43,864 bases of DNA, from the IMG/VR virus record IMGVR_UViG_2711768005_000008; one strand, written 5' to 3'. This document shows, one piece after another, positions 76-10,608 of the stretch. Source of the DNA: a virus. Its lineage: Duplodnaviria; Heunggongvirae; Uroviricota; Caudoviricetes. The notes beneath the pieces are model-generated. The model was not told where the DNA came from. It saw only the letters and a list, made by a program, of their open reading frames with translations, and made no database searches. Positions within the stretch are counted from its first letter, which is position 1; each line of letters begins with the position of its first letter. A program made the position numbers and the translations under genes.

Positions 76-306
76 ATGGTAGTGTCCGCTATTGCCAGTA
101 CACCTCAGCTATTACCTTCTTCAGAGAGCCCCCAGCTACTTCCTGTGACTCTCGATGCAGCTGCCGAACAGCCAGAATCGCTCGCAGAGGACCCGAAAAC
201 CCTCAGTATCAGCTGTGAGGTAACGTTCCGGCACGGGACGCTCCGCTTCAATGGCAATGTCAGCGAAAAGCTCCTGACTCTGCTGATACAGGAACTGAAG
301 CGATGA
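76..306 (+). CDS. IS66-family accessory protein (orf1/TnpA-like); frame is open back to position 1, so may be 5'-partial
   Basis: Stop overlaps the start of the IS66 TnpB-like ORF (ATGA at 303-306), the usual IS66 orf1-orf2 coupling; the ORF itself carries no motif I recognise. Confidence 0.45.
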   Translation: MVVSAIASTPQLLPSSESPQLLPVTLDAAAEQPESLAEDPKTLSISCEVTFRHGTLRFNGNVSEKLLTLLIQELKR

Positions 307-626
307 TCCCGTTACCTTCCGGGATCAAAATTTGGCTGGTTGCCGGTATCACCGATATGAGAAATGGCTTCAACGGCCTGGCTGCGAAAGTACAGACGGC
401 GCTGAAAGACGATCCCATGTCCGGCCATGTTTTCATTTTCCGGGGCCGCAGCGGCAGTCAGGTTAAACTGCTGTGGTCCACCAGTGACGGACTGTGCCTC
501 CTGACCAAACGGCTGGAGCGTGGGCGCTTCGCCTGGCCGTCAGCCCGTGATGGCAAAGTGTTCCTTACACAGGCGCAGCTGGCGATGCTGCTGGAAGGTA
601 TCGACTGGCGACATATAACCAGGTGA
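303..626 (+). CDS. tnpB: IS66-family TnpB (Orf2), probably lacking about 10 C-terminal residues
   Basis: Protein has IWLVAGITDMRNGFNGLAAKVQ / GHVFIFRGRSGSQVKLLW / DGLCLLTKRLE / FAWP, the conserved IS66 Orf2 signature; ORF ends exactly where the Mu-like left-end repeats begin. Confidence 0.8.
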   Translation: MIPLPSGIKIWLVAGITDMRNGFNGLAAKVQTALKDDPMSGHVFIFRGRSGSQVKLLWSTSDGLCLLTKRLERGRFAWPSARDGKVFLTQAQLAMLLEGIDWRHITR

Positions 627-1823: not shown

Positions 1824-3911
1824 ATGTTTGCTTCAGTTAAAGAACTGGTTGGATTACCGGGGATGCCGGGAACGGAGCAAGGCGTTCGCTATTCAATCAG
1901 GAAGTATGCAACCAGCGAAACCAGCAGACGCCGCAAGAAAGGCGCTAAAGGTTTTGAATACAGCATTGACTGTTTACCTGAAGTGACACAGCAGGCATTA
2001 CGCGAACGTTATGCCCTGCAACTGATGACGCAAAAAGCCGATGAATCACCGGCTCCGGTGGTGACAAAGGCCAGACGCTCGTCTGCCGTGGTTGATGCGG
2101 TGGAGGCATATCGCGGATCACCACAACTGATGGTCGAACGCCTCAATGCCCTGACTGAAAACCAGCGCCAGGTGGCAGACGCACGCATTGCGATCGTCAG
2201 TGAGGTGCTGAAATTCACGCAACAACCCGGTTTCAGCTGCGCTAAAGCTATCCGGTTCCTCGTTAACAGCCTGGCACGATCACAACTGGACGAGCGCATT
2301 GTGGCAATGGTTGAGACGGCGAACGCCAAAAAGGGAAACAGCCGCGCGTTGAGTGAAATCACGCTGAAACGCTGGATTGCGGCCTTTAACAAGGCACAGA
2401 ACGCCGCTGAACGCCTGCTTTTACTGGCACCGGGTAAACGCCAGGAAATAAAAGCCGAAGATATTAACTGGCTGCCCGAATTTCTGGCGCAGTATCGCCA
2501 GTCAAACGGCCGACCAATGACCGAGGCTTACGAGGATTTTGTTGCTGAATGGCAGCACCGGCACGCTGATGAGCCTTATATGCTCGATATCATGCCCTCT
2601 TATGACACCATTCGCCGCGCAATGAAGAAACTGCCGGAAGTGGTGAAACAAAAAGGCCGGGTAACTGGCAGTGAATACCGTCAGCTTGAGGGATTCACGC
2701 GCCGCGACTGGTCCAGAATGCCGGTGAATTATGTCTGGATTGGTGACGGTCACGGCATGAAGCTGAAATGCGCGCACCCGGTTCACGGGCGGCCATTCGC
2801 ACCGGAAGTGACCTTTGTTATCGACGGTGGCACGCGCTTTGTGGTGGGCTGGAGCCTTGACCTGGCTGAAAATGTTTTCGCCGTAGCCGGTGCCATACAG
2901 CACGGTATTCGCCATCATGGCAAACCGTTTCTGTATTACTCGGATAATGGCTCCGGGGAAACCGCCGACGTCCTGGATAAGGAGATTGTGGGGATACTGC
3001 CACGACTGGGGATTAATCACCCGACAGGGATTGCCGGTAATCCGCAGGGACGGGGCATTATCGAACGGCTTAACCGCACATTACCGATGCGCATAGCCCG
3101 TAAATACCGCACCTATTTCGGGAAAGGAGCAGATCGCGAGACGTTACGTAAAACCAACCGCGATTTACGCTCGGCATTCAGTGCCCTGCAACAGGGCAAA
3201 CGGCTGAACGCCCGGCAGCAGTCAGCGATGCGTGATTTACCGTCCTGGTCTGAACTGATTGATGCCATTCGTGACGGTGTTGAGTGGTACAACAACCGGC
3301 CGCACGATGAATTACCCATGAAGCCGAACGGTAAACATTACAGCCCGGCGGAGTTCAGAAAAAAACGCCTGGCGGAAGAGGACACGGAAATTGAATGGCT
3401 GTCCGATGTTGAACTGCGGGATATGTTCCGGCCGATGGTGGAGCGCCCTGTAAGACGCTGTGAAATACGCTGGCTGAATAATATTTACTACGCGCCCGAG
3501 CTGCGTGACGAGCATGGCCGTAAGGTACTTATCAGCTATGACATTCATGATGCCGAACGAATTACCGTGCGCCGCCCGGATGGCAGCGTGATTTGCGAGG
3601 CGGTATGGGACGGCAATAAACGCGAAGCCTTCCCTGTCAGCGCGGAATACTACAAACAGCAGCAGCGCCTTAAAGGCATGCGTAAACGCGCAGAGGAAAA
3701 AATCCGTGATGCCGAGGATGAGGTTGTCAACGTGCTGGAGCACAAGCCGCAGGAGCCCTGGCTGGAAAACATATACCGCCCTGTGGGTAATACGGTGACC
3801 GTTCAGCAACCGGTCGCTGACGATGAACCTGATGAAGAATACGAGCGTAATTTCCAGCGGGGATTGCAACTGCTCGAAGCGAAATTAAAAGAAAGTGATC
3901 CGCTGGCCTGA
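1824..3911 (+). CDS. A: Mu-type DDE transposase A
   Basis: 695 aa, follows ner; catalytic-core-like region VWIGDGHGMKLKC...FVIDGGTRFVVGW...YYSDNGSGE. Confidence 0.85.
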   Translation: MFASVKELVGLPGMPGTEQGVRYSIRKYATSETSRRRKKGAKGFEYSIDCLPEVTQQALRERYALQLMTQKADESPAPVVTKARRSSAVVDAVEAYRGSPQLMVERLNALTENQRQVADARIAIVSEVLKFTQQPGFSCAKAIRFLVNSLARSQLDERIVAMVETANAKKGNSRALSEITLKRWIAAFNKAQNAAERLLLLAPGKRQEIKAEDINWLPEFLAQYRQSNGRPMTEAYEDFVAEWQHRHADEPYMLDIMPSYDTIRRAMKKLPEVVKQKGRVTGSEYRQLEGFTRRDWSRMPVNYVWIGDGHGMKLKCAHPVHGRPFAPEVTFVIDGGTRFVVGWSLDLAENVFAVAGAIQHGIRHHGKPFLYYSDNGSGETADVLDKEIVGILPRLGINHPTGIAGNPQGRGIIERLNRTLPMRIARKYRTYFGKGADRETLRKTNRDLRSAFSALQQGKRLNARQQSAMRDLPSWSELIDAIRDGVEWYNNRPHDELPMKPNGKHYSPAEFRKKRLAEEDTEIEWLSDVELRDMFRPMVERPVRRCEIRWLNNIYYAPELRDEHGRKVLISYDIHDAERITVRRPDGSVICEAVWDGNKREAFPVSAEYYKQQQRLKGMRKRAEEKIRDAEDEVVNVLEHKPQEPWLENIYRPVGNTVTVQQPVADDEPDEEYERNFQRGLQLLEAKLKESDPLA

Positions 3912-3984: not shown

Positions 3985-4926
3985 GTGAATAATATGACCG
4001 ATATTAACGATGTAATCAAGACCATTGATGAACTTATTGATGGCGGCGTACTGACGCAGTATGCCATCGCCAGAGAGGCGGGAATTTCCGACGGCACATT
4101 ATCGGCTTTCCGTAAGGGAAAATATAAAGGCGATAACGCTGCTGTGGCTGCTTCCCTGCGCTCCTGGTATGAGAACTGGAATAAACAAAGCGCACTGCCG
4201 GAACCGCCGCAGTTTGTGGAAACTCAGACAGTCCAGGAGCTGCGCGCACTGTTTCAGGCGGTTCGCCTGATGGGCTGTATTAACGTTATTGTGGGCGTAC
4301 CGGGTGTGGGTAAAACGGCCACTGCCCGTAATTACTGCCAGGAGCAACCAAACACCTGGATGATCACCCTGTCACCCGCGCACTCCAGCGTCACGGAGTG
4401 TCTGCTGGAGCTGGCCGATGCGCTGGGGATTGATTACACCCGCGCGAACAAAGGGGCATTATCCCGCGCCATCCGCCGTCGCCTGATGGGAACGCGTGGA
4501 CTGGTGATTGTGGATGAGGCGGATCATCTTGGTATTGACGGTCTGGAGCAACTCCGGGCAATTCAGGACGCCACGGGGATCGGGATGGTGCTTATTGGTA
4601 ACCCGCGCGGATTGTTTAAAGGTGGACGCCGCGCCTTTGATGATTTATCGCGCCTGTTCAGCCGTCTTGCCCGTACAAAACAACTTCGCAAGGCCAAAAA
4701 GGCGGATGTGCTGGCCATTGCCATGGCGTGGGGGATCAGTGGTGAGGCCGAGCTGGCCGTCATGCAGGCTATCGCTGAAAAGCCGGGAGCGTTACGCGTT
4801 CTGACACATACGCTTAACCAGGCGTGGCTCACCGCCAGCGGTGAAGGCGCGGCGCTGACAGAAAAACATATTAATGCGGCCTTTAAAGAGGTTTATACCA
4901 ACCCTGAATTACTCTCACAGGTGTGA
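3985..4926 (+). CDS. B: Transposition ATPase B (AAA+ target-DNA activator)
   Basis: 313 aa; Walker A VGVPGVGKT, Walker B VIVDEADHL; directly follows A. Confidence 0.85.
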   Translation: MNNMTDINDVIKTIDELIDGGVLTQYAIAREAGISDGTLSAFRKGKYKGDNAAVAASLRSWYENWNKQSALPEPPQFVETQTVQELRALFQAVRLMGCINVIVGVPGVGKTATARNYCQEQPNTWMITLSPAHSSVTECLLELADALGIDYTRANKGALSRAIRRRLMGTRGLVIVDEADHLGIDGLEQLRAIQDATGIGMVLIGNPRGLFKGGRRAFDDLSRLFSRLARTKQLRKAKKADVLAIAMAWGISGEAELAVMQAIAEKPGALRVLTHTLNQAWLTASGEGAALTEKHINAAFKEVYTNPELLSQV

Positions 4927-4928
4927 TT

Positions 4929-5150
4929 ATGGCGGTATTTAATATTCCTGATATTTACGGACGCTTTTACCTGGTTAATTTCGATAACGTGAAGGTGATT
5001 TCACTGGCCGAAAATAAAGAATGTGGCGATTTACTTTTTGAATTTAATGACCGCACACGAATGGTGATATCTGCCGGACTTGATCGCGAAGGTGCGACAG
5101 AAGTTTACAGCGGAATATGCCGTTCTGTTGGTGCGAAACAAGTCAGCTAA
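4929..5150 (+). CDS. hypothetical early protein
   Basis: ORF in the co-directional early operon, overlaps the B stop; function unknown. Confidence 0.4.
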   Translation: MAVFNIPDIYGRFYLVNFDNVKVISLAENKECGDLLFEFNDRTRMVISAGLDREGATEVYSGICRSVGAKQVS

Positions 5151-5162
5151 ATGAGGTGTTAT

Positions 5163-5417
5163 ATGAATATGCAATCCTGCGGTAACAAAATGAATTTATT
5201 CGACTCCCTGAACAGCGCGCGCCGTCTGACCGAACTTGCCGGTGCGGTACTGGAACGCAGTAAGCGCTATCCGCAACGTTTTGCACTGAAAACCACGCCG
5301 CCGGTAGGCAACGTGCAGGGAACCGGTGAAATTGAAATCACCATACAGACCAACGGCCTGCGCCGCCGTGTGAAGGCCACCCGCATCAGCGGCTGCACGG
5401 TTTACTGGGAGGTGTGA
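5163..5417 (+). CDS. hypothetical early protein (start ambiguous, 5151-5163)
   Basis: ORF in early operon. Confidence 0.4.
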   Translation: MNMQSCGNKMNLFDSLNSARRLTELAGAVLERSKRYPQRFALKTTPPVGNVQGTGEIEITIQTNGLRRRVKATRISGCTVYWEV

Positions 5418-5418
5418 G

Positions 5419-5700
5419 GTGAAAAAAAATCTCATTGCATGGGCGTGGTCGAGTGGTCTTATTGAGTTTGGTTACGTCCTGCCGGAAGGTGCATTGCCGA
5501 TAGTTGCCGGAAAGCCTGCCACGGTACGGCATGTGATTGAGGTTATGGCGCGTCATGGACGTGATGAACAGGAGCAGTTACTGGTTCCGGGGATACCGGA
5601 AGCGGTGACGGAGGAAGAAGCCTTTAATGCCATGATTCGGTTCTGCCGTGAGGTTAGACGCCGGGTCAGTTATCCAAACAGAACGAGGACCAGAGGATGA
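5419..5700 (+). CDS. hypothetical early protein (GTG start)
   Basis: ORF preceded by GGAGG, tightly packed with its neighbours. Confidence 0.4.
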   Translation: MKKNLIAWAWSSGLIEFGYVLPEGALPIVAGKPATVRHVIEVMARHGRDEQEQLLVPGIPEAVTEEEAFNAMIRFCREVRRRVSYPNRTRTRG

Positions 5701-5969
5701 GTAAAGTCGTACGCATTATTTTCGAATACAAGGAAGATGTTATCTGCAAAAACTCTGATGGCAGCACGCACAGAGGGGTAAGTCTGGATATACGTTCAAC
5801 CGGAATAAAGAAGAAAGATAATGGACCCGCCATGATTTTTGGGGTGGTTATGCTGGCAGAAAGCAGAAACTTCGCAGAGTTTGTGGCAATGAAAGCCAGT
5901 GCATTCATGAAAGACAGAGGCATGGCTTCCGGGGTTATTAACGGTAATGAATTTAATCAACAGGGGTAA
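5697..5969 (+). CDS. hypothetical early protein, paralog A (MSKVVRIIFEY...)
   Basis: ORF; N-terminus resembles the next ORF. Confidence 0.45.
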   Translation: MSKVVRIIFEYKEDVICKNSDGSTHRGVSLDIRSTGIKKKDNGPAMIFGVVMLAESRNFAEFVAMKASAFMKDRGMASGVINGNEFNQQG

Positions 5970-5973
5970 TTCC

Positions 5974-6267
5974 ATGAGCAAAGTACGCGTTATTTTTGAA
6001 TTTAATCATGTTTCGCATGACGAAAAGTTGGCAGGCAATGACTGTGTTGAAGTGCATGAAAAGATTGGAGTGGATGTGAAAACAGAACGTGATACGGATA
6101 ACAGGCCGACGTCACTCTGTGACGTTTATGCAAGTATTCTCCAGTATCACAGTCCTGCAATTATTCAGTTTCTCTCAGCGGAATTTCAGGCATCTGCACA
6201 GTCTTTTGGAGCGGATGCCATCATTAAACGCCACCGCGTGCATAAAGCATCAGGCACACTGCAATAA
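5974..6267 (+). CDS. hypothetical early protein, paralog B (MSKVRVIFEF...)
   Basis: ATG at 5974 preceded by a purine-rich stretch; N-terminus parallels the 5697 ORF. Confidence 0.45.
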   Translation: MSKVRVIFEFNHVSHDEKLAGNDCVEVHEKIGVDVKTERDTDNRPTSLCDVYASILQYHSPAIIQFLSAEFQASAQSFGADAIIKRHRVHKASGTLQ

Positions 6268-6278
6268 GGAAAAACAAA

Positions 6279-6809
6279 ATGGCTAAACGCGTTACAAAAT
6301 TAAAGGCCGCAGCCGAGGCGGCACCGCAGACCCGGGAAGAAGTCAGCCGTGATATCCGCACCCTGGGAGATATTCAGCGAGAGGCGCTGCGCCTGGAAAC
6401 GGCGATGAATGACGAAGTGGCAGAAATCACCGCCCGTTATACGCCGCAGATTGAAAATCTTAAAAAGCAAATCAAAGTGCTTTTTAAAGGGATTCAGGAC
6501 TGGTGCAAAACCAACCGTGATGAGCTGACGAACGGCGGCAAAACCAAAACAGCCAATCTGACCACCGGAACGGTGTCATGGCGGCTGGGAACGCCATCAT
6601 GCAGCGTCAGCCGTGATGTGGAAGGTGTGATTGAAATGCTGCGCCGTATGGGGCTTGAGCGTTTCATCCGCACGAAAGAGGAAGTGAACAAGGAAGCCGT
6701 CCTGGCGGAGCCGGATGCTGTGAAAGGCATTGCCGGTATCAAGGTGAATAAAGGCGCTGAAAGTTTTTATGTCGAGCCTTTTGAACAGGACGCCGGACTG
6801 AATAAATAA
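6279..6809 (+). CDS. gam: Gam-like host-nuclease inhibitor (Ku-like DNA end-binding protein)
   Basis: 176 aa; DIQREALRLETAMNDEVAEIT...NRDELTNGGKTKTANLTTGTVSWR...RFIRTKEEVNKEA closely parallels Mu Gam. Confidence 0.8.
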   Translation: MAKRVTKLKAAAEAAPQTREEVSRDIRTLGDIQREALRLETAMNDEVAEITARYTPQIENLKKQIKVLFKGIQDWCKTNRDELTNGGKTKTANLTTGTVSWRLGTPSCSVSRDVEGVIEMLRRMGLERFIRTKEEVNKEAVLAEPDAVKGIAGIKVNKGAESFYVEPFEQDAGLNK

Positions 6810-6954
6810 CACCGCATTAATCAATTAAATATCACTTCATTTTAATTATGGCGCTCGCGTCAGGGGACTGCTTGCGCCTGAAAACAGAAAATAAGGGTTA
6901 AGAAATATGAAATACGTTTATATCGTCATTAATAATGTGGTGGGGAAATAAATC

Positions 6955-7488
6955 ATGATTGATGCAAAAGTGCTTGAAGGGGTTAAAAACTGGCTGTGTA
7001 TTTATGGCCGCCTGACCTGCGGTGTACTGGCTGAAAAAATGAATATGCCGCCATCCTCCATGGTTTATTTTCTGCGTGATGCGGTTGATGCAGGCGTGCT
7101 GACGGAATGTAACGGTTTTTATGATATTCCGCGTCCCCGCCCGGTGCAGCCGGTTCGTCGCAAATGCAGCCAGGAATCTGCGGCTGATGATGTTCAGTGG
7201 TGCGGCTTCAGAAAATCCCTGCCATGGATTGAGGGGCATGATATTCCGTCGATGGCGTGGGAATTTGCTCAGGGCGTTCTGACCTGTGAAACCGTTTATG
7301 TGGTGGCTGAAGTTGATGAGCAGGCCATGAAAGAAGGCGTGCCCCAGTTTGTGATGGCGTATATCGACATACGCCTGGGCGTCATTATCTGCGGTTTAAG
7401 CGGCTGGAATATCACTGAACATGTTCTGCGCTACCTGATTGTTGACCGGACAGCAGCGCCTGCCGGGATATCTGCGGAGGTGGCGTAA
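6955..7488 (+). CDS. hypothetical protein, possible N-terminal helix-turn-helix
   Basis: 177-aa ORF in the early operon. Confidence 0.4.
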   Translation: MIDAKVLEGVKNWLCIYGRLTCGVLAEKMNMPPSSMVYFLRDAVDAGVLTECNGFYDIPRPRPVQPVRRKCSQESAADDVQWCGFRKSLPWIEGHDIPSMAWEFAQGVLTCETVYVVAEVDEQAMKEGVPQFVMAYIDIRLGVIICGLSGWNITEHVLRYLIVDRTAAPAGISAEVA

Positions 7489-8003
7489 TGTTCTTTAAAA
7501 CATCAAACCCTTCCGCGCTGGCTGCGTGGCAAAAATACCAGCAGGACTGCCAGAAAGTTAAGGATGAGGCAAAACGCCTTGAGGCCGTGCTGAATGTTGC
7601 GTGCCGGTCGGTATTTGTATCCGGTATCAGTGGATTTTACTTTAAGGGACTGCGTTTTACGGAGGACAAATATCCTTTTCATCGCGACTTATGGCGAAAA
7701 CCGACTGCGTCGAATGGCTGGAGCTGCACACCGCGCACATCACGTATCCCTAAAACCCTGCGTGTTGCCTCTGATGAACTGAACAGTCTGTGGCGTGAAT
7801 ATTCGCCCGTCACGTATGCCAGAACCGATGCGCTGTTGTTCTGGTTGGGTATTGATTTCTCGGCAATCCTGTTTGGCCCTGTGAAGTGGTTCTGCGTTGA
7901 CGATGTGATTTACCTTCAGTGCGGCGTAAAACCCGCAAAACAGAAAATGACCGAAATACTGTCTGATGAGTTTTATGCTGCTGAAAAGCGAGTCAGGGGG
8001 TGA
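7488..8003 (+). CDS. hypothetical protein
   Basis: 171-aa ORF, start overlaps the previous stop. Confidence 0.4.
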   Translation: MFFKTSNPSALAAWQKYQQDCQKVKDEAKRLEAVLNVACRSVFVSGISGFYFKGLRFTEDKYPFHRDLWRKPTASNGWSCTPRTSRIPKTLRVASDELNSLWREYSPVTYARTDALLFWLGIDFSAILFGPVKWFCVDDVIYLQCGVKPAKQKMTEILSDEFYAAEKRVRG

Positions 8004-8006
8004 TGC

Positions 8007-8558
8007 ATGATGAAATTACAACCCATGGGACTAAAAGGTCGCGCCCCCGCTCATGTCCGTCCGTGGACACCTGAAGAAGATGCGCTGCTGATTGCGCTTT
8101 ATTCATCCACCCCGGTTAAGGATATTGCTGCCAGAATAAAAAGAACTGTCTGGGCTGTATATAACCGGACTGGTGTATTGCGCAGTTCATACCCGGAGTT
8201 ACTGAAATATAAACACCCAAGATTTACACCTGATGAAGATAAGTTTATTCGAAAAAATGCCAGAACAATGACCTGCCAGCAAATGGGAGAATATCTCGGA
8301 CGTAATAAAGATTCTGTCAGATGTCGGGCAGGAATGATTGGTGCTGGATTAACAAAGTGCGGAGAGTTACGCCCCGGCACGCGCATATCTGATGATGATG
8401 TACGTCTTATACGTGAGCTGCGTGATTCCGATTACCCACGCCGTCTGTCATTCCGGGAAATTGGCGAAAAGTTTGGAATATCTGAACATTCTGCTCACGC
8501 AGTTTATTACCGTCGCCGGACTGCCGAGGACGCTGTATTACGGGAGTTAACGCCATGA
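8007..8558 (+). CDS. hypothetical DNA-binding protein with two W-x-P-[ED]-ED (SANT/Myb-like) repeats and a C-terminal HTH-like segment
   Basis: WTPEEDALLIALY... and FTPDEDKFIRKN... repeats; LSFREIGEKFGISEHSAHAVYY. Confidence 0.4.
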   Translation: MMKLQPMGLKGRAPAHVRPWTPEEDALLIALYSSTPVKDIAARIKRTVWAVYNRTGVLRSSYPELLKYKHPRFTPDEDKFIRKNARTMTCQQMGEYLGRNKDSVRCRAGMIGAGLTKCGELRPGTRISDDDVRLIRELRDSDYPRRLSFREIGEKFGISEHSAHAVYYRRRTAEDAVLRELTP

Positions 8559-8887
8559 TAACGACCTTATTTGTTGAATCAGATGAACCTCTTGTGTGTG
8601 CCGCCGGAATGCCGCTCTGTGGCGGAACGCTGACCGGCGTTTATTTCGGGGATTTGCGCGGTTATCCCTGGCATTCACTGGATGACGCATTTCCGCCTGA
8701 TATGGAGGCTGTCGTGCTGATTGTTCAGTATGGTGACCAACAGGAACTGCGCATCGGCCATATGGGGTATGAAGGCTTTTTTATTGATGAAGAAACCGGA
8801 GCCTGCCTTGAAGATGAGGACGGACAGGTGACGCACTGGTGCCATCTTTCGGCCTTGCCGGAATTACAGGGGATACATAATGGATGA
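8555..8887 (+). CDS. hypothetical protein
   Basis: 110-aa ORF overlapping its neighbours. Confidence 0.4.
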   Translation: MITTLFVESDEPLVCAAGMPLCGGTLTGVYFGDLRGYPWHSLDDAFPPDMEAVVLIVQYGDQQELRIGHMGYEGFFIDEETGACLEDEDGQVTHWCHLSALPELQGIHNG

Positions 8888-9023
8888 GCAAATTGTTGAA
8901 TGTCCCACCTGTGGAAATGAGGACCCGGAGTATCTGAAAGAGTGCCCACATTGTGGTGAGATAAAATGTAACCACTGCGATATGGGCGACGACACTGCAT
9001 GTATAAATTGTGAGGATGAATAA
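8880..9023 (+). CDS. 47-aa Cys8 zinc-ribbon microprotein (four CxxC pairs); absent from the ORF track because shorter than 60 aa
   Basis: ATG at 8880 overlaps the upstream stop; MDEQIVECPTCGNEDPEYLKECPHCGEIKCNHCDMGDDTACINCEDE. Confidence 0.45.
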   Translation: MDEQIVECPTCGNEDPEYLKECPHCGEIKCNHCDMGDDTACINCEDE

Positions 9024-9024
9024 T

Positions 9025-9312
9025 ATGGAAAAAGAAATCAAATTTGCGCCTAAATCTATCGACGAAGAACTGGCTAAAATCGGCATGCTTGAACGTATGC
9101 GGGACATTATCGAATATGCGATAAAAGAAAATCTTGCAGCCAGAGAAGCCCTTTTGATAATGGAGCGGGAGATTAACCTGATTAAGGATGCTGTATCTCT
9201 GGATAATAAAATAGCCCGCGAGGAATACGTTCGCCGTAGGCTCGGTGTTGATGGTTCAGCAATTCTTACATCTGAACATTATGCAAAAATTTTTAATCTT
9301 TTTCAGCGGTAA
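9025..9312 (+). CDS. hypothetical protein (start could be GTG 9010)
   Basis: ORF; GAGGA upstream of ATG 9025. Confidence 0.4.
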   Translation: MEKEIKFAPKSIDEELAKIGMLERMRDIIEYAIKENLAAREALLIMEREINLIKDAVSLDNKIAREEYVRRRLGVDGSAILTSEHYAKIFNLFQR

Positions 9313-9532
9313 TCCCCATACAGGCCCGGAGATTGTCGAAATGCCAGTCGGTATTAATATATGAGCCATCCTGGATATCTTCTGCATTTTCCGGGGTAGA
9401 GTTTTTTTGAGCGAGATTGATAATATGTATTGCCTCCTCACGGGAAATCAGCCCCTTATCGAACAGGGTTACCATAAGATTTCCAGCCATTGTGAATGCG
9501 GCAACATCAAGTGCATTTTTTATATCTGACAT
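9293..9532 (-). CDS. hypothetical small protein on the opposite strand to the early operon
   Basis: 79-aa ORF with AAGGA 8 nt upstream of its ATG; fills the 9312-9603 gap, convergent with the 9025 ORF. Confidence 0.45.
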   Translation of the reverse strand: MSDIKNALDVAAFTMAGNLMVTLFDKGLISREEAIHIINLAQKNSTPENAEDIQDGSYINTDWHFDNLRACMGITAEKD

Positions 9533-9602
9533 AGATTTTTCCTTTTATGTTAATTGACATGGCGGTGCGGTAACACCGCCCATTTTTTATGGAGCCACGA
9601 TA

Positions 9603-10115
9603 ATGAATCGCGCTTCCCTGATTACCTTAATACATGTCGCAAAACGCGATCTACAGCTTGACCATGATACCTATACATCCGCGCTGCTGGCAGCCACCGG
9701 CAAATCCAGTTGCCGTGATATGTCACCCGGTGAGTTATCCCGCGTGCTGGATGTTTTCAAAAAACGCGGTTTTAAAGTGCGTCAGAAGCCGGTTAACCGG
9801 GCCTTAAAACCGGGTACGGTGACCGCCAAAATTCGCGCCATCTGGAAAGTGATGCACCGGCAGGGATTTATCTCTGATGGCGGGGAAACGGCCCTTAACC
9901 GCTGGGTGAAATCGCAGACGGCCGCGCAGAACGACGGCGAAGGTGTGGCTAACTGGCAGTGGCTGGAGCAACAACCCGCGCTGGCCTCTGATGTGCTGGA
10001 GCGTCTCAAACGCTGGCACCGCCGCAAAATGCTGGCAGCCCTGGATATGTCGGAACGTGCAGTGATGAGTTATGAGCGTGTTTGCAGGCTGTATGAAAAA
10101 TCATTCCCCCGTTAA
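9603..10115 (+). CDS. gemA: GemA-like (Mu gp16 / DUF1018-type) regulatory protein
   Basis: N-terminus MNRASLITLIHVAKRDLQLDHDTY...AATGKSSCRDMS as in the Mu gp16 family; position just before mor/C. Confidence 0.55.
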   Translation: MNRASLITLIHVAKRDLQLDHDTYTSALLAATGKSSCRDMSPGELSRVLDVFKKRGFKVRQKPVNRALKPGTVTAKIRAIWKVMHRQGFISDGGETALNRWVKSQTAAQNDGEGVANWQWLEQQPALASDVLERLKRWHRRKMLAALDMSERAVMSYERVCRLYEKSFPR

Positions 10116-10185
10116 CCCCAAATCCCGCCACAGCGCGGGATTTTTATTTTAAACTTGCCCTGTGTAATGATGACCGGAGGCGGGT

Positions 10186-10608
10186 ATGGCTGAAACACAG
10201 ATGAGCATGTTTGGTGACAGCGAACAGCTGCACGCGCTGATTGACCGTCTGGATGATATTCCTGATGATGAGCTGAAAAAGAACTGGCCCGGCACGCTGC
10301 GGGACCTGGTTGATGTGATCAGTGCTGAACTGCACCGTCAGGGGATTGAACCTGCTCAGGCGGGAATGCTTGCCCGTAAGGTTGCAGCCGCACAGGCCGG
10401 GTACATGGGCGGGCGTGGTTATTATCTCCCGGTCGGTGAATCCCTTTTCACCGAACTGCGCAATAATGAAATTTTTTCCCGCTGGAGCCAGGGCGAAAAA
10501 ATTGAAACCCTGCGCCGCCACTACCAGATGTCAGAGACGCAGATTTACTCCGTTATCCGCAACCAGCGTCGCCTGCATCAGGAACGCACGCAGCCACGGC
10601 TTTTCTGA
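10186..10608 (+). CDS. Mor/C-family transcriptional activator (only one family member present)
   Basis: 140 aa, directly upstream of the lysis and late genes; the size and position of Mu Mor/C. Confidence 0.55.
   Translation: MAETQMSMFGDSEQLHALIDRLDDIPDDELKKNWPGTLRDLVDVISAELHRQGIEPAQAGMLARKVAAAQAGYMGGRGYYLPVGESLFTELRNNEIFSRWSQGEKIETLRRHYQMSETQIYSVIRNQRRLHQERTQPRLF

Follow-up and report, generated by a model that had tools for sequence, protein, structure and literature searches.

The gam-to-gemA interval of a Mu-like Escherichia coli prophage compared with the semi-essential early region of Mu

The sequence IMGVR_UViG_2711768005_000008 (43,864 nucleotides; this whole stretch is called the window below) represents a Mu-like transposable prophage of Escherichia coli, in which seven open reading frames (ORFs), O1 to O7, span positions 6955 to 9532 between gam and gemA. 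We read this interval, with a probability of about 0.6, as the gam-to-gemA half of a Mu-type semi-essential early region, in which O1 to O6 would belong to the early operon, and the antisense gene O7 and a hairpin would stand as part of a boundary in front of gemA. By sequence comparison, six of the seven ORFs (all but O4) have counterparts in Mu, and those counterparts remain uncharacterised. The functions of the Mu semi-essential early region, which is transcribed from the Pe promoter, have been described as "largely unknown" (PMC3820752), and in the literature on Mup11-15, Mu anti-defence and Mu transcriptomes we found no functional data on these genes. The original prediction had proposed an early region of this type with uncharacterised genes, and both the gene order and the homology are indeed those of Mu. 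Its statement that none of the genes has a recognisable phage function holds for function and fails for identity, and the Mu early proteins matched are not characterised ones.

All seven ORFs lie between gam and gemA where they had been predicted, and they can be confirmed as real, well beyond chance. Each of them matches a PHROG family with E values from 3e-26 to 4e-105, O3 being labelled "transcriptional regulator" and the other six "unknown function". Pairwise ratios of nonsynonymous to synonymous substitution rates (dN/dS), calculated against diverged copies in sister prophages or Mu, range from 0.03 to 0.37 and indicate purifying selection on all seven. Throughout O1 to O6 we found Shine-Dalgarno sequences and abutting or overlapping stop and start codons: TAATG at 7486-7490 (O1/O2), ATGA at 8555-8558 (O3/O4), an 8-nt overlap at 8880-8887 (O4/O5) and a 1-nt gap at 9023/9025 (O5/O6). 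An NCBIfam scan of the seven ORFs gave nothing useful, PDB sequence searches with O1, the O1 N-terminus, O2, O4, O6 and O7 returned nothing or chance matches (MIF), and no solved structural relative suggests a function for any of the seven.

Beside the gene identity and anatomy, which are established by these comparisons, the transcription pattern and the activities are what we infer. As in Mu, transcription from Pe would cover O1 to O6, which would form a single part of the early operon with coupled translation, so that their products would be made only after induction or infection. These products are best pictured as small nucleic-acid-binding and protein-binding accessory factors; our best guess is that, together with Gam and GemA, they tune DNA transactions of the phage or the host when lytic growth begins, and that laboratory growth does not depend on them. 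O7 cannot be expressed from the Pe transcript and must then have its own leftward transcription, which would run against the early operon over the 3' end of the gp14 gene and yield a small soluble protein. Most plausibly, the unit of gp14, O7 and hairpin would act as a boundary that limits or times the entry of early transcription into gemA-mor.

The region as such was already recognised, and what the present analysis adds is the antisense gene, the relation of O3 to Mu gp9, an unannotated gene for a protein with eight cysteines (Cys8) and the conserved hairpin. Three annotations would need correction: the Cys8 gene is missing from RefSeq copies, the name "AsnC family" given to O3 relatives is misleading, and the strand of Mu gp15 is probably wrong. 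The antisense gene and the hairpin could matter for the timing of gemA-mor in Mu, where this can be tested in a model system. For experiments, the analysis supplies a map of core and swappable genes.

Table 1. Features of the gam-to-gemA interval, with positions in the window (aa, amino acids; pI, isoelectric point)
Feature	Position	Strand	Description
gam	6279-6809		left flank of O1-O7; Pfam Phage_Mu_Gam, 5.5e-42
O1	6955-7488	+	177 aa, acidic, pI 4.9; Mu gp11 orthologue
O2	7488-8003	+	171 aa, basic, pI 9.3; Mu gp12 orthologue
O3	8007-8558	+	183 aa, basic, pI 9.9; three-module Myb/helix-turn-helix protein, Mu gp9 homologue
O4	8555-8887	+	110 aa, pI 4.05, net charge -17; DUF551-like C-terminal half
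O5	8880-9023	+	47 aa, net charge -12; Cys8 microprotein, orthologue of Mu gp13 core
O6	9025-9312	+	95 aa; Mu gp14 orthologue, convergent with O7
O7	9293-9532	-	79 aa, acidic; antisense small gene, overlaps O6 3' end by 20 nt
Hairpin and T6	9561-9589	+	between O7 start and gemA Shine-Dalgarno sequence; pattern scan
gemA	9603-10115		right flank of O1-O7; Pfam GemA, 1.8e-28

Orthologues of Mu gp11 to gp14

Between gam and gemA the Mu genome encodes gp11 (176 aa), gp12 (176 aa), gp13 (60 aa), gp14 (100 aa) and gp15 (55 aa). The genes of gp11-gp14 (formerly E10-E15) keep the same order and the same flanks as in the window, with gam upstream and gemA-mor downstream, and all four products are still hypothetical proteins in Mu. 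They are conserved core genes that Mu, D108 and SfMu share with the Mu-like phages of Yersinia, and purifying selection acts on them. Unlike Mu, the window carries the O3-O4 insertion between the gp12-like and gp13-like genes. The Mu genes kil/cim and arm, which we take to lie upstream of gam, and lig, which we take to be gem, would be the wrong comparison for this interval; the Mu record itself confirms only kil (also called cim, Mu 4315-4539).

O1 is 68% identical to Mu gp11 over its full length, and its residues 90-167 match the Pfam model Gp11_C (PF25754) with an E value of 5.7e-41 and 139.2 bits, against a gathering cut-off of 27. It falls into phrog_1949 (E 4e-105), and its homologues in the phage collection are confined to Muvirus phages and this prophage lineage. 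As in Mu, O1 sits directly after gam and before the gp12-like O2; one extra gene separates gam from gp11 in some sister prophages. The N-terminal 60 residues or so are conserved, and it is possible that they form a winged helix-turn-helix (HTH). O2 shares 55% identity with Mu gp12 over 169 of its 171 residues (E 4e-70), and a newer Pfam model, PF26885 (Phage_Mu_Gp12), is precomputed on all 46 O2 homologue clusters. Related prophages have a DUF5420 protein encoded after gam, and a relation of gp12 to it was rejected (hhalign probability 0.2%).

The Cys8 microprotein of the original prediction is O5, whose eight cysteines within 47 residues form four CxxC pairs (C8/C11, C22/C25, C30/C33 and C41/C44). 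It is 88% identical to residues 20-60 of Mu gp13 over 41 aa and has no equivalent of the 19-aa N-terminal extension of gp13. With a dN/dS of 0.03 against Mu, O5 is the best-conserved protein of the block. It matches phrog_5584 (3e-26), and the same Cys8 module also makes up the C-terminus of phrog_6418. Presumably O5 binds two zinc ions, and this two-zinc module is likely a protein-binding adaptor that is also fused to other proteins. The gene (window 8880-9023; 10081-10224 in the copy L001) has no coding sequence (CDS) in the RefSeq copies L001, L003 and L004, which were annotated by the Prokaryotic Genome Annotation Pipeline (PGAP). In the Muvirus-like contig L013 (5510-6205, minus strand), the Cys8 module ends a 231-aa protein that stands in place of gp12 and gp13, a hint that the module and the product of the gene before it act jointly.

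O6 is 49% identical to Mu gp14 over 94 aa and matches phrog_6075 (6e-44). Its longest frame starts from GTG at 9010, yet the ATG at 9025 is favoured by the Shine-Dalgarno sequence, by PGAP and by the alignment with Mu gp14. The best-supported account of O6 is a helical protein.

The antisense gene O7 and the hairpin upstream of gemA

The convergent antisense gene of the original prediction is O7. It has its own Shine-Dalgarno sequence, AAGGA, and matches phrog_32893 (1e-45). The family is very small and confined to Mu-like prophages: we found 10 clusters among 5.8 billion proteins and 9 representatives among 1.84 billion, and an exhaustive HMMER search gave seven more distant representatives of 37-49% identity. 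Among isolated phages O7 was absent, except for a Mu-like insert in one Shiga toxin (Stx) phage. The N-terminal part of the family carries the motif D-x3-F-x4-N-x4-L-x3-G.

The loci of the distant homologues comprise six recognisable Mu-like prophages and two short fragments (L020 and L021), and in all eight the O7-family gene is a lone opposite-strand gene, its neighbours all running the other way. Each of the six Mu-like loci shows it convergent with a homologue of gp14 and with gemA downstream of its start, at about 70 bp in five of them; in the sixth, L014, two genes intervene. The phages that carry the family differ from one another in other respects: some have Gam and others DUF3164, GH108 alternates with a lysozyme, and the number of Mor genes is one or two. 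Homologues of gp14 (30-60% identity) adjoin every O7-family gene tested (Mu, D108, L007, L010, L012, L014 and L015). The conserved position across Mu-like phages rules out that O7 is a lineage-specific add-on.

In Mu (AF083977) an 88-aa reverse ORF with a Shine-Dalgarno sequence lies at 7896-8162 on the minus strand, and it matches the O7 family profile with an hhalign probability of 93% (E 3e-7). The annotated forward gene gp15/Mu_54 (55 aa, 7960-8127, plus strand) lies wholly inside it and, used as a control, gave a probability of 1%. In D108 (GQ357916) gene 14 and gemA are separated by 376 bp that carry no annotation, and a 119-aa reverse homologue (2154-2513, minus strand; hhalign E 7e-8) is located there. 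A forward gp15 ORF is present in Mu and Tongde and absent from D108, L012/L013 and the window. By comparison, the reverse gene is annotated in SfMu (SfMu_16) and in a Yersinia Muvirus, the phage Tongde, and appears as "putative F-134" in an old Mu left-end record. These three lie between gp14 and gemA like O7 and are homologous to its N-terminal 50 residues or so, although only some 24% of residues are identical to O7; they diverge in the C-terminal half, and the WH(L/F)DNL motif of the O7 relatives is absent in Mu. Mu and SfMu differ at only five sites here, too few for dN/dS to separate the gp15 frame from the reverse frame, so that in Mu the reverse frame is argued for by homology and by conservation across lineages. 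Mu forward gp15 is thus probably an annotation artefact, the true gene lying on the reverse strand.

Behind the start of O7 stands the hairpin GGCGGTG-N6-CACCGCC, with a 7-bp stem of which 6 pairs are GC and a 6-nt loop, followed by CATTTTTTAT. By its pattern it reads as a plus-strand intrinsic terminator or attenuator; an Rfam scan of 6500-10300 found no family. The same hairpin, with a T-rich tract and a Shine-Dalgarno sequence, occurs in Mu, D108, SfMu, L005, L007, L010, L012, L014 and L015. In the alignment of these nine sequences 95.8% of cells pair, and two pairs show a compensatory change. L014 has the hairpin in front of whichever forward gene comes first behind the antisense gene, and this is not gemA, which indicates that the hairpin goes with the antisense boundary.

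A broader proposal is put forward tentatively, with the odds against it: gp14, the O7-family gene and the hairpin may form a three-part unit that gates the early-to-middle switch or supplies a protein to the lysogen, with the reverse 88-aa ORF and not gp15 as the true Mu gene. If this were true, the early region of Mu-like phages would end in a common unit of three parts that had not been described.

The O3-O4 insertion

Tandem SANT/Myb-like repeats followed by an HTH had been proposed for O3, and profile, Pfam and AlphaFold2 evidence bears this out. The protein consists of Myb-like repeat 1 (residues 22-59), Myb-like repeat 2 (75-110) and an HTH (129-169). In the AlphaFold2 model (mean predicted local distance difference test score 84.6) these form three three-helix bundles, the repeat helices being 22-32/37-43/48-59 and 75-84/90-97/101-110. 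The profile of the O3 family (22 members) matches c-Myb R2R3 (1h88_C) with an E value of 1.2e-6 over residues 18-106, covering both repeats, and the archaeal multi-HTH protein Cbp1 (2lvs) with an E value of 5e-4; both are built of tandem three-helix modules, as O3 is. Unlike c-Myb R2R3, the third module of O3 is a bacterial HTH of the sigma-r4/AsnC type. Pfam Myb_DNA-binding (PF00249) is matched by 17 of the 22 members and Sigma70_r4/HTH_AsnC, at the C-terminus, by 16; O3 alone stays under the Pfam Myb cut-off (19.7 against 24.4 bits).

The first tryptophan of repeat 1, W20, is the sole invariant tryptophan in the family alignment, and three regularly spaced conserved tryptophan or aromatic residues per repeat were not found in it; the pattern is thus a looser, Myb-like one and not the canonical Myb. 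Foldseek retrieved as PDB neighbours of the model only multi-HTH DNA binders, Cbp1 being the best; all global scores are weak (E > 0.03), as is expected for modules joined by flexible linkers. We infer that O3 is a sequence-specific DNA binder. Its family comprises 27 clusters, the source names shown being all E. coli or Salmonella, and PGAP names the relatives either "SANT/Myb-like" or "AsnC family". Membership of the AsnC/Lrp family was rejected: the AsnC-type HTH is C-terminal, and the ligand-binding (RAM) domain was found in none of the 22 members. The name "AsnC family" is misleading for this reason, since it reflects the HTH alone.

The O3 family profile is also related to Mu gp9 (E8), a 95-aa hypothetical protein with two modules that is encoded just upstream of gam (hhalign probability 97.4%, E 9e-12, 89 columns covering repeat 2 and the HTH); gp9 itself has only sub-threshold Pfam HTH matches. 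By this homology O3 is related to an early protein of Mu but is longer and encoded elsewhere: compared with gp9, it has an additional N-terminal Myb-like repeat and is located after gp12 and not upstream of gam. The window ORF at the position of gp9 (5974-6267) was considered as an O3 relative and is unrelated. The O3 allele is 71% identical (synonymous rate, dS, about 0.6) to its counterparts in L003 (2929-3480) and L004 (2928-3479), whereas the neighbouring genes are 93-97% identical (dS about 0.2), which points to replacement of the allele by recombination.

O4 gave no tblastn match in Mu and is the only one of the seven ORFs without a Mu counterpart. It belongs to phrog_6925 (2e-51). Residues 39-102 match Pfam DUF551 (PF04448) weakly, the E value being 0.062 and the score 14.6 bits where the cut-off is 22. 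The literature presents DUF551 as a portable domain of phages, without a known function (PMC10834534); DUF551 proteins include YfdS of E. coli CPS-53 and Ea22 variant V2 of Stx phages. With YfdS the alignment of O4 is limited to a 16-aa C-terminal THW..PE motif. The N-terminal 38 residues of O4 gave no match.

Variation among related prophages and weighing of the explanations

The window region 6800-9650 is 100% identical to that of E. coli strain 600029 (NZ_CM128582), where the annotation runs repressor, ner-like gene, Mu-type transposase, MuB-like ATPase, five small genes, Gam, the O1-O7 block, gp16/GemA, Mor-family activator and lysozyme. At least part of the block is carried by 232 of the 5426 complete genomes of E. 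coli, which gives a prophage lineage present in about 4% of them; the O3-O4 pair is likewise in 232, while the full seven-gene arrangement (at least 80% coverage) and this O7 allele are each found in 14. Related prophages differ in what they insert or exchange. A gene of phrog_2260/DUF5420 is inserted between gam and gp11, two further small genes stand between O3 and O4, and O5-O6-O7 can be swapped as a block for phrog_6158, phrog_1988 and a reverse-strand DUF2513 gene. This last gene occupies the reverse-strand slot upstream of the gemA hairpin (L005 3918-4328 and L006 4416-4826, both minus); it was compared as a possible O7 relative and is unrelated. The conserved core consists of gp11, gp12, gp13, gp14 and the antisense gene. 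Swapping affects O4 and the alleles of O3, the site that follows gam, and the cassette of gp14 and the antisense gene; whatever gene it holds, the slot on the reverse strand persists.

Several observations weigh against the reading of the interval as accessory early genes closed by a boundary. The HTH-like character that the original prediction gave to O1 finds weak support in sub-threshold matches to HTH_10 and HTH_CodY at residues 18-49, with no PDB sequence match, and the alpha/beta model of O2 has no informative structural neighbour. In Mu the hairpin is followed by a weak T-run (CCCTTTCC), and the early operon of Mu is reported to end with mor (PMC9936078); the hairpin therefore cannot be a full stop in Mu and would at most attenuate. 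Its covariation support is modest, the shuffle controls being not decisive at nine sequences. A search for sigma-70 promoters in front of the O7-family gene at 10 loci and of the DUF2513 gene in L005 found none of consensus type; the window and L012 gave one weak match apiece, and the other loci gave nothing.

It might be argued that the conserved feature at O7 is an antisense RNA or regulatory DNA in which the ORF is incidental. The protein is short and found no match in Pfam, NCBIfam or PDB, the gene annotated here in the Mu reference is on the other strand, and the five Mu/SfMu differences cannot tell the frames apart. This explanation nevertheless seems very unlikely: every lineage keeps the frame open and preceded by a Shine-Dalgarno sequence, the protein is conserved at 31-49% identity with D9, F13, N18, L23, G27 and H64 invariant, dN/dS is 0.17-0.28, and the forward gp15 neither recurs in D108, L012/L013 or the window nor resembles the family. 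If O7 is a protein-coding gene, it may instead be lysogen-expressed cargo, the reverse-strand slot serving O7 or the DUF2513 gene for superinfection exclusion or defence. The slot is oriented against the repressed early operon and used by two unrelated families, and the O7 allele is far rarer than the lineage (14 against 232 genomes). The transposable Pseudomonas phage Fc02 offers a precedent in olg1 and gene 10, opposite-strand genes in its regulatory/early part that have exclusion activity and of which one is expressed in the lysogen (PMC9936078); these genes lie beside the repressor and ner, not upstream of gemA, and are comparable to O7 by analogy only. Moreover, even Mu-like phages as far apart as these, Mu and D108 among them, have the O7 family at one conserved position, which looks like a core function, no promoter was found at the 10 loci, and neither O7, its Mu and D108 homologues nor DUF2513 has a PADLOC match. 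We consider the cargo explanation doubtful.

The original prediction had singled out the interval as a likely site of anti-defence or host-takeover activities. On this view one or more of O4, O5, O1 or the DNA binders would inhibit host restriction, RecBCD-linked or other defence, in the manner of the neighbouring Gam. The interval adjoins Gam in the early operon, O4 (-17 in 110 aa) and O5 (-12 in 47 aa) have a charge density like that of DNA mimics, cassettes are exchanged at three sites among related prophages, and the O3 allele has diverged far more than its flanking genes. Anti-defence is thus possible in that it is compatible with the acidic proteins and the variable O3/O4 pair, but positive evidence for it did not emerge: none of the seven ORFs has a PADLOC match at E ≤ 0.1, none of the PHROG matches carries an anti-defence label (no dedicated anti-defence library was searched), no known inhibitor is among the structural neighbours, and DUF2513 and the other alternative cassette genes also lack PADLOC matches. 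Unlike fast-turnover counter-defence genes, the gp11-gp14 core keeps a low dN/dS across E. coli, Shigella and Yersinia phages, and the conservation and purifying selection of O1, O2, O5 and O6 suggest a role intrinsic to the phage and not arms-race cargo. For the interval as a whole we regard anti-defence as unlikely, and the reading as accessory genes of the Mu-type early region is preferred.

Some minor observations concern the surroundings of the interval. Just left of the prophage end, an IS66 Orf2/TnpB gene lies at window 303-626 (Pfam 1.2e-37); in strain 600029 the same prophage interrupts an SgrR-family gene instead. The five small ORFs between B and gam (window 4923-6267) have no Pfam match, and the second of them shows a faint similarity to Mu Kil (33% over 39 aa). 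The sole Mor-family gene of the window (10186-10608), directly followed by the lysozyme gene, is 40% identical to Mu C and 28% to Mu Mor, and the window seems to have one Mor/C-family activator where Mu has two. In the spacer between gam and O1, the element TTAATTATGGCGC-N19-GCGCCTGAAA (window 6845-6884) is also kept in Mu (about 6355-6400) and may be a hairpin or a protein-binding site; the DUF5420/phrog_2260 gene of the sister prophages is inserted just 3' of it.

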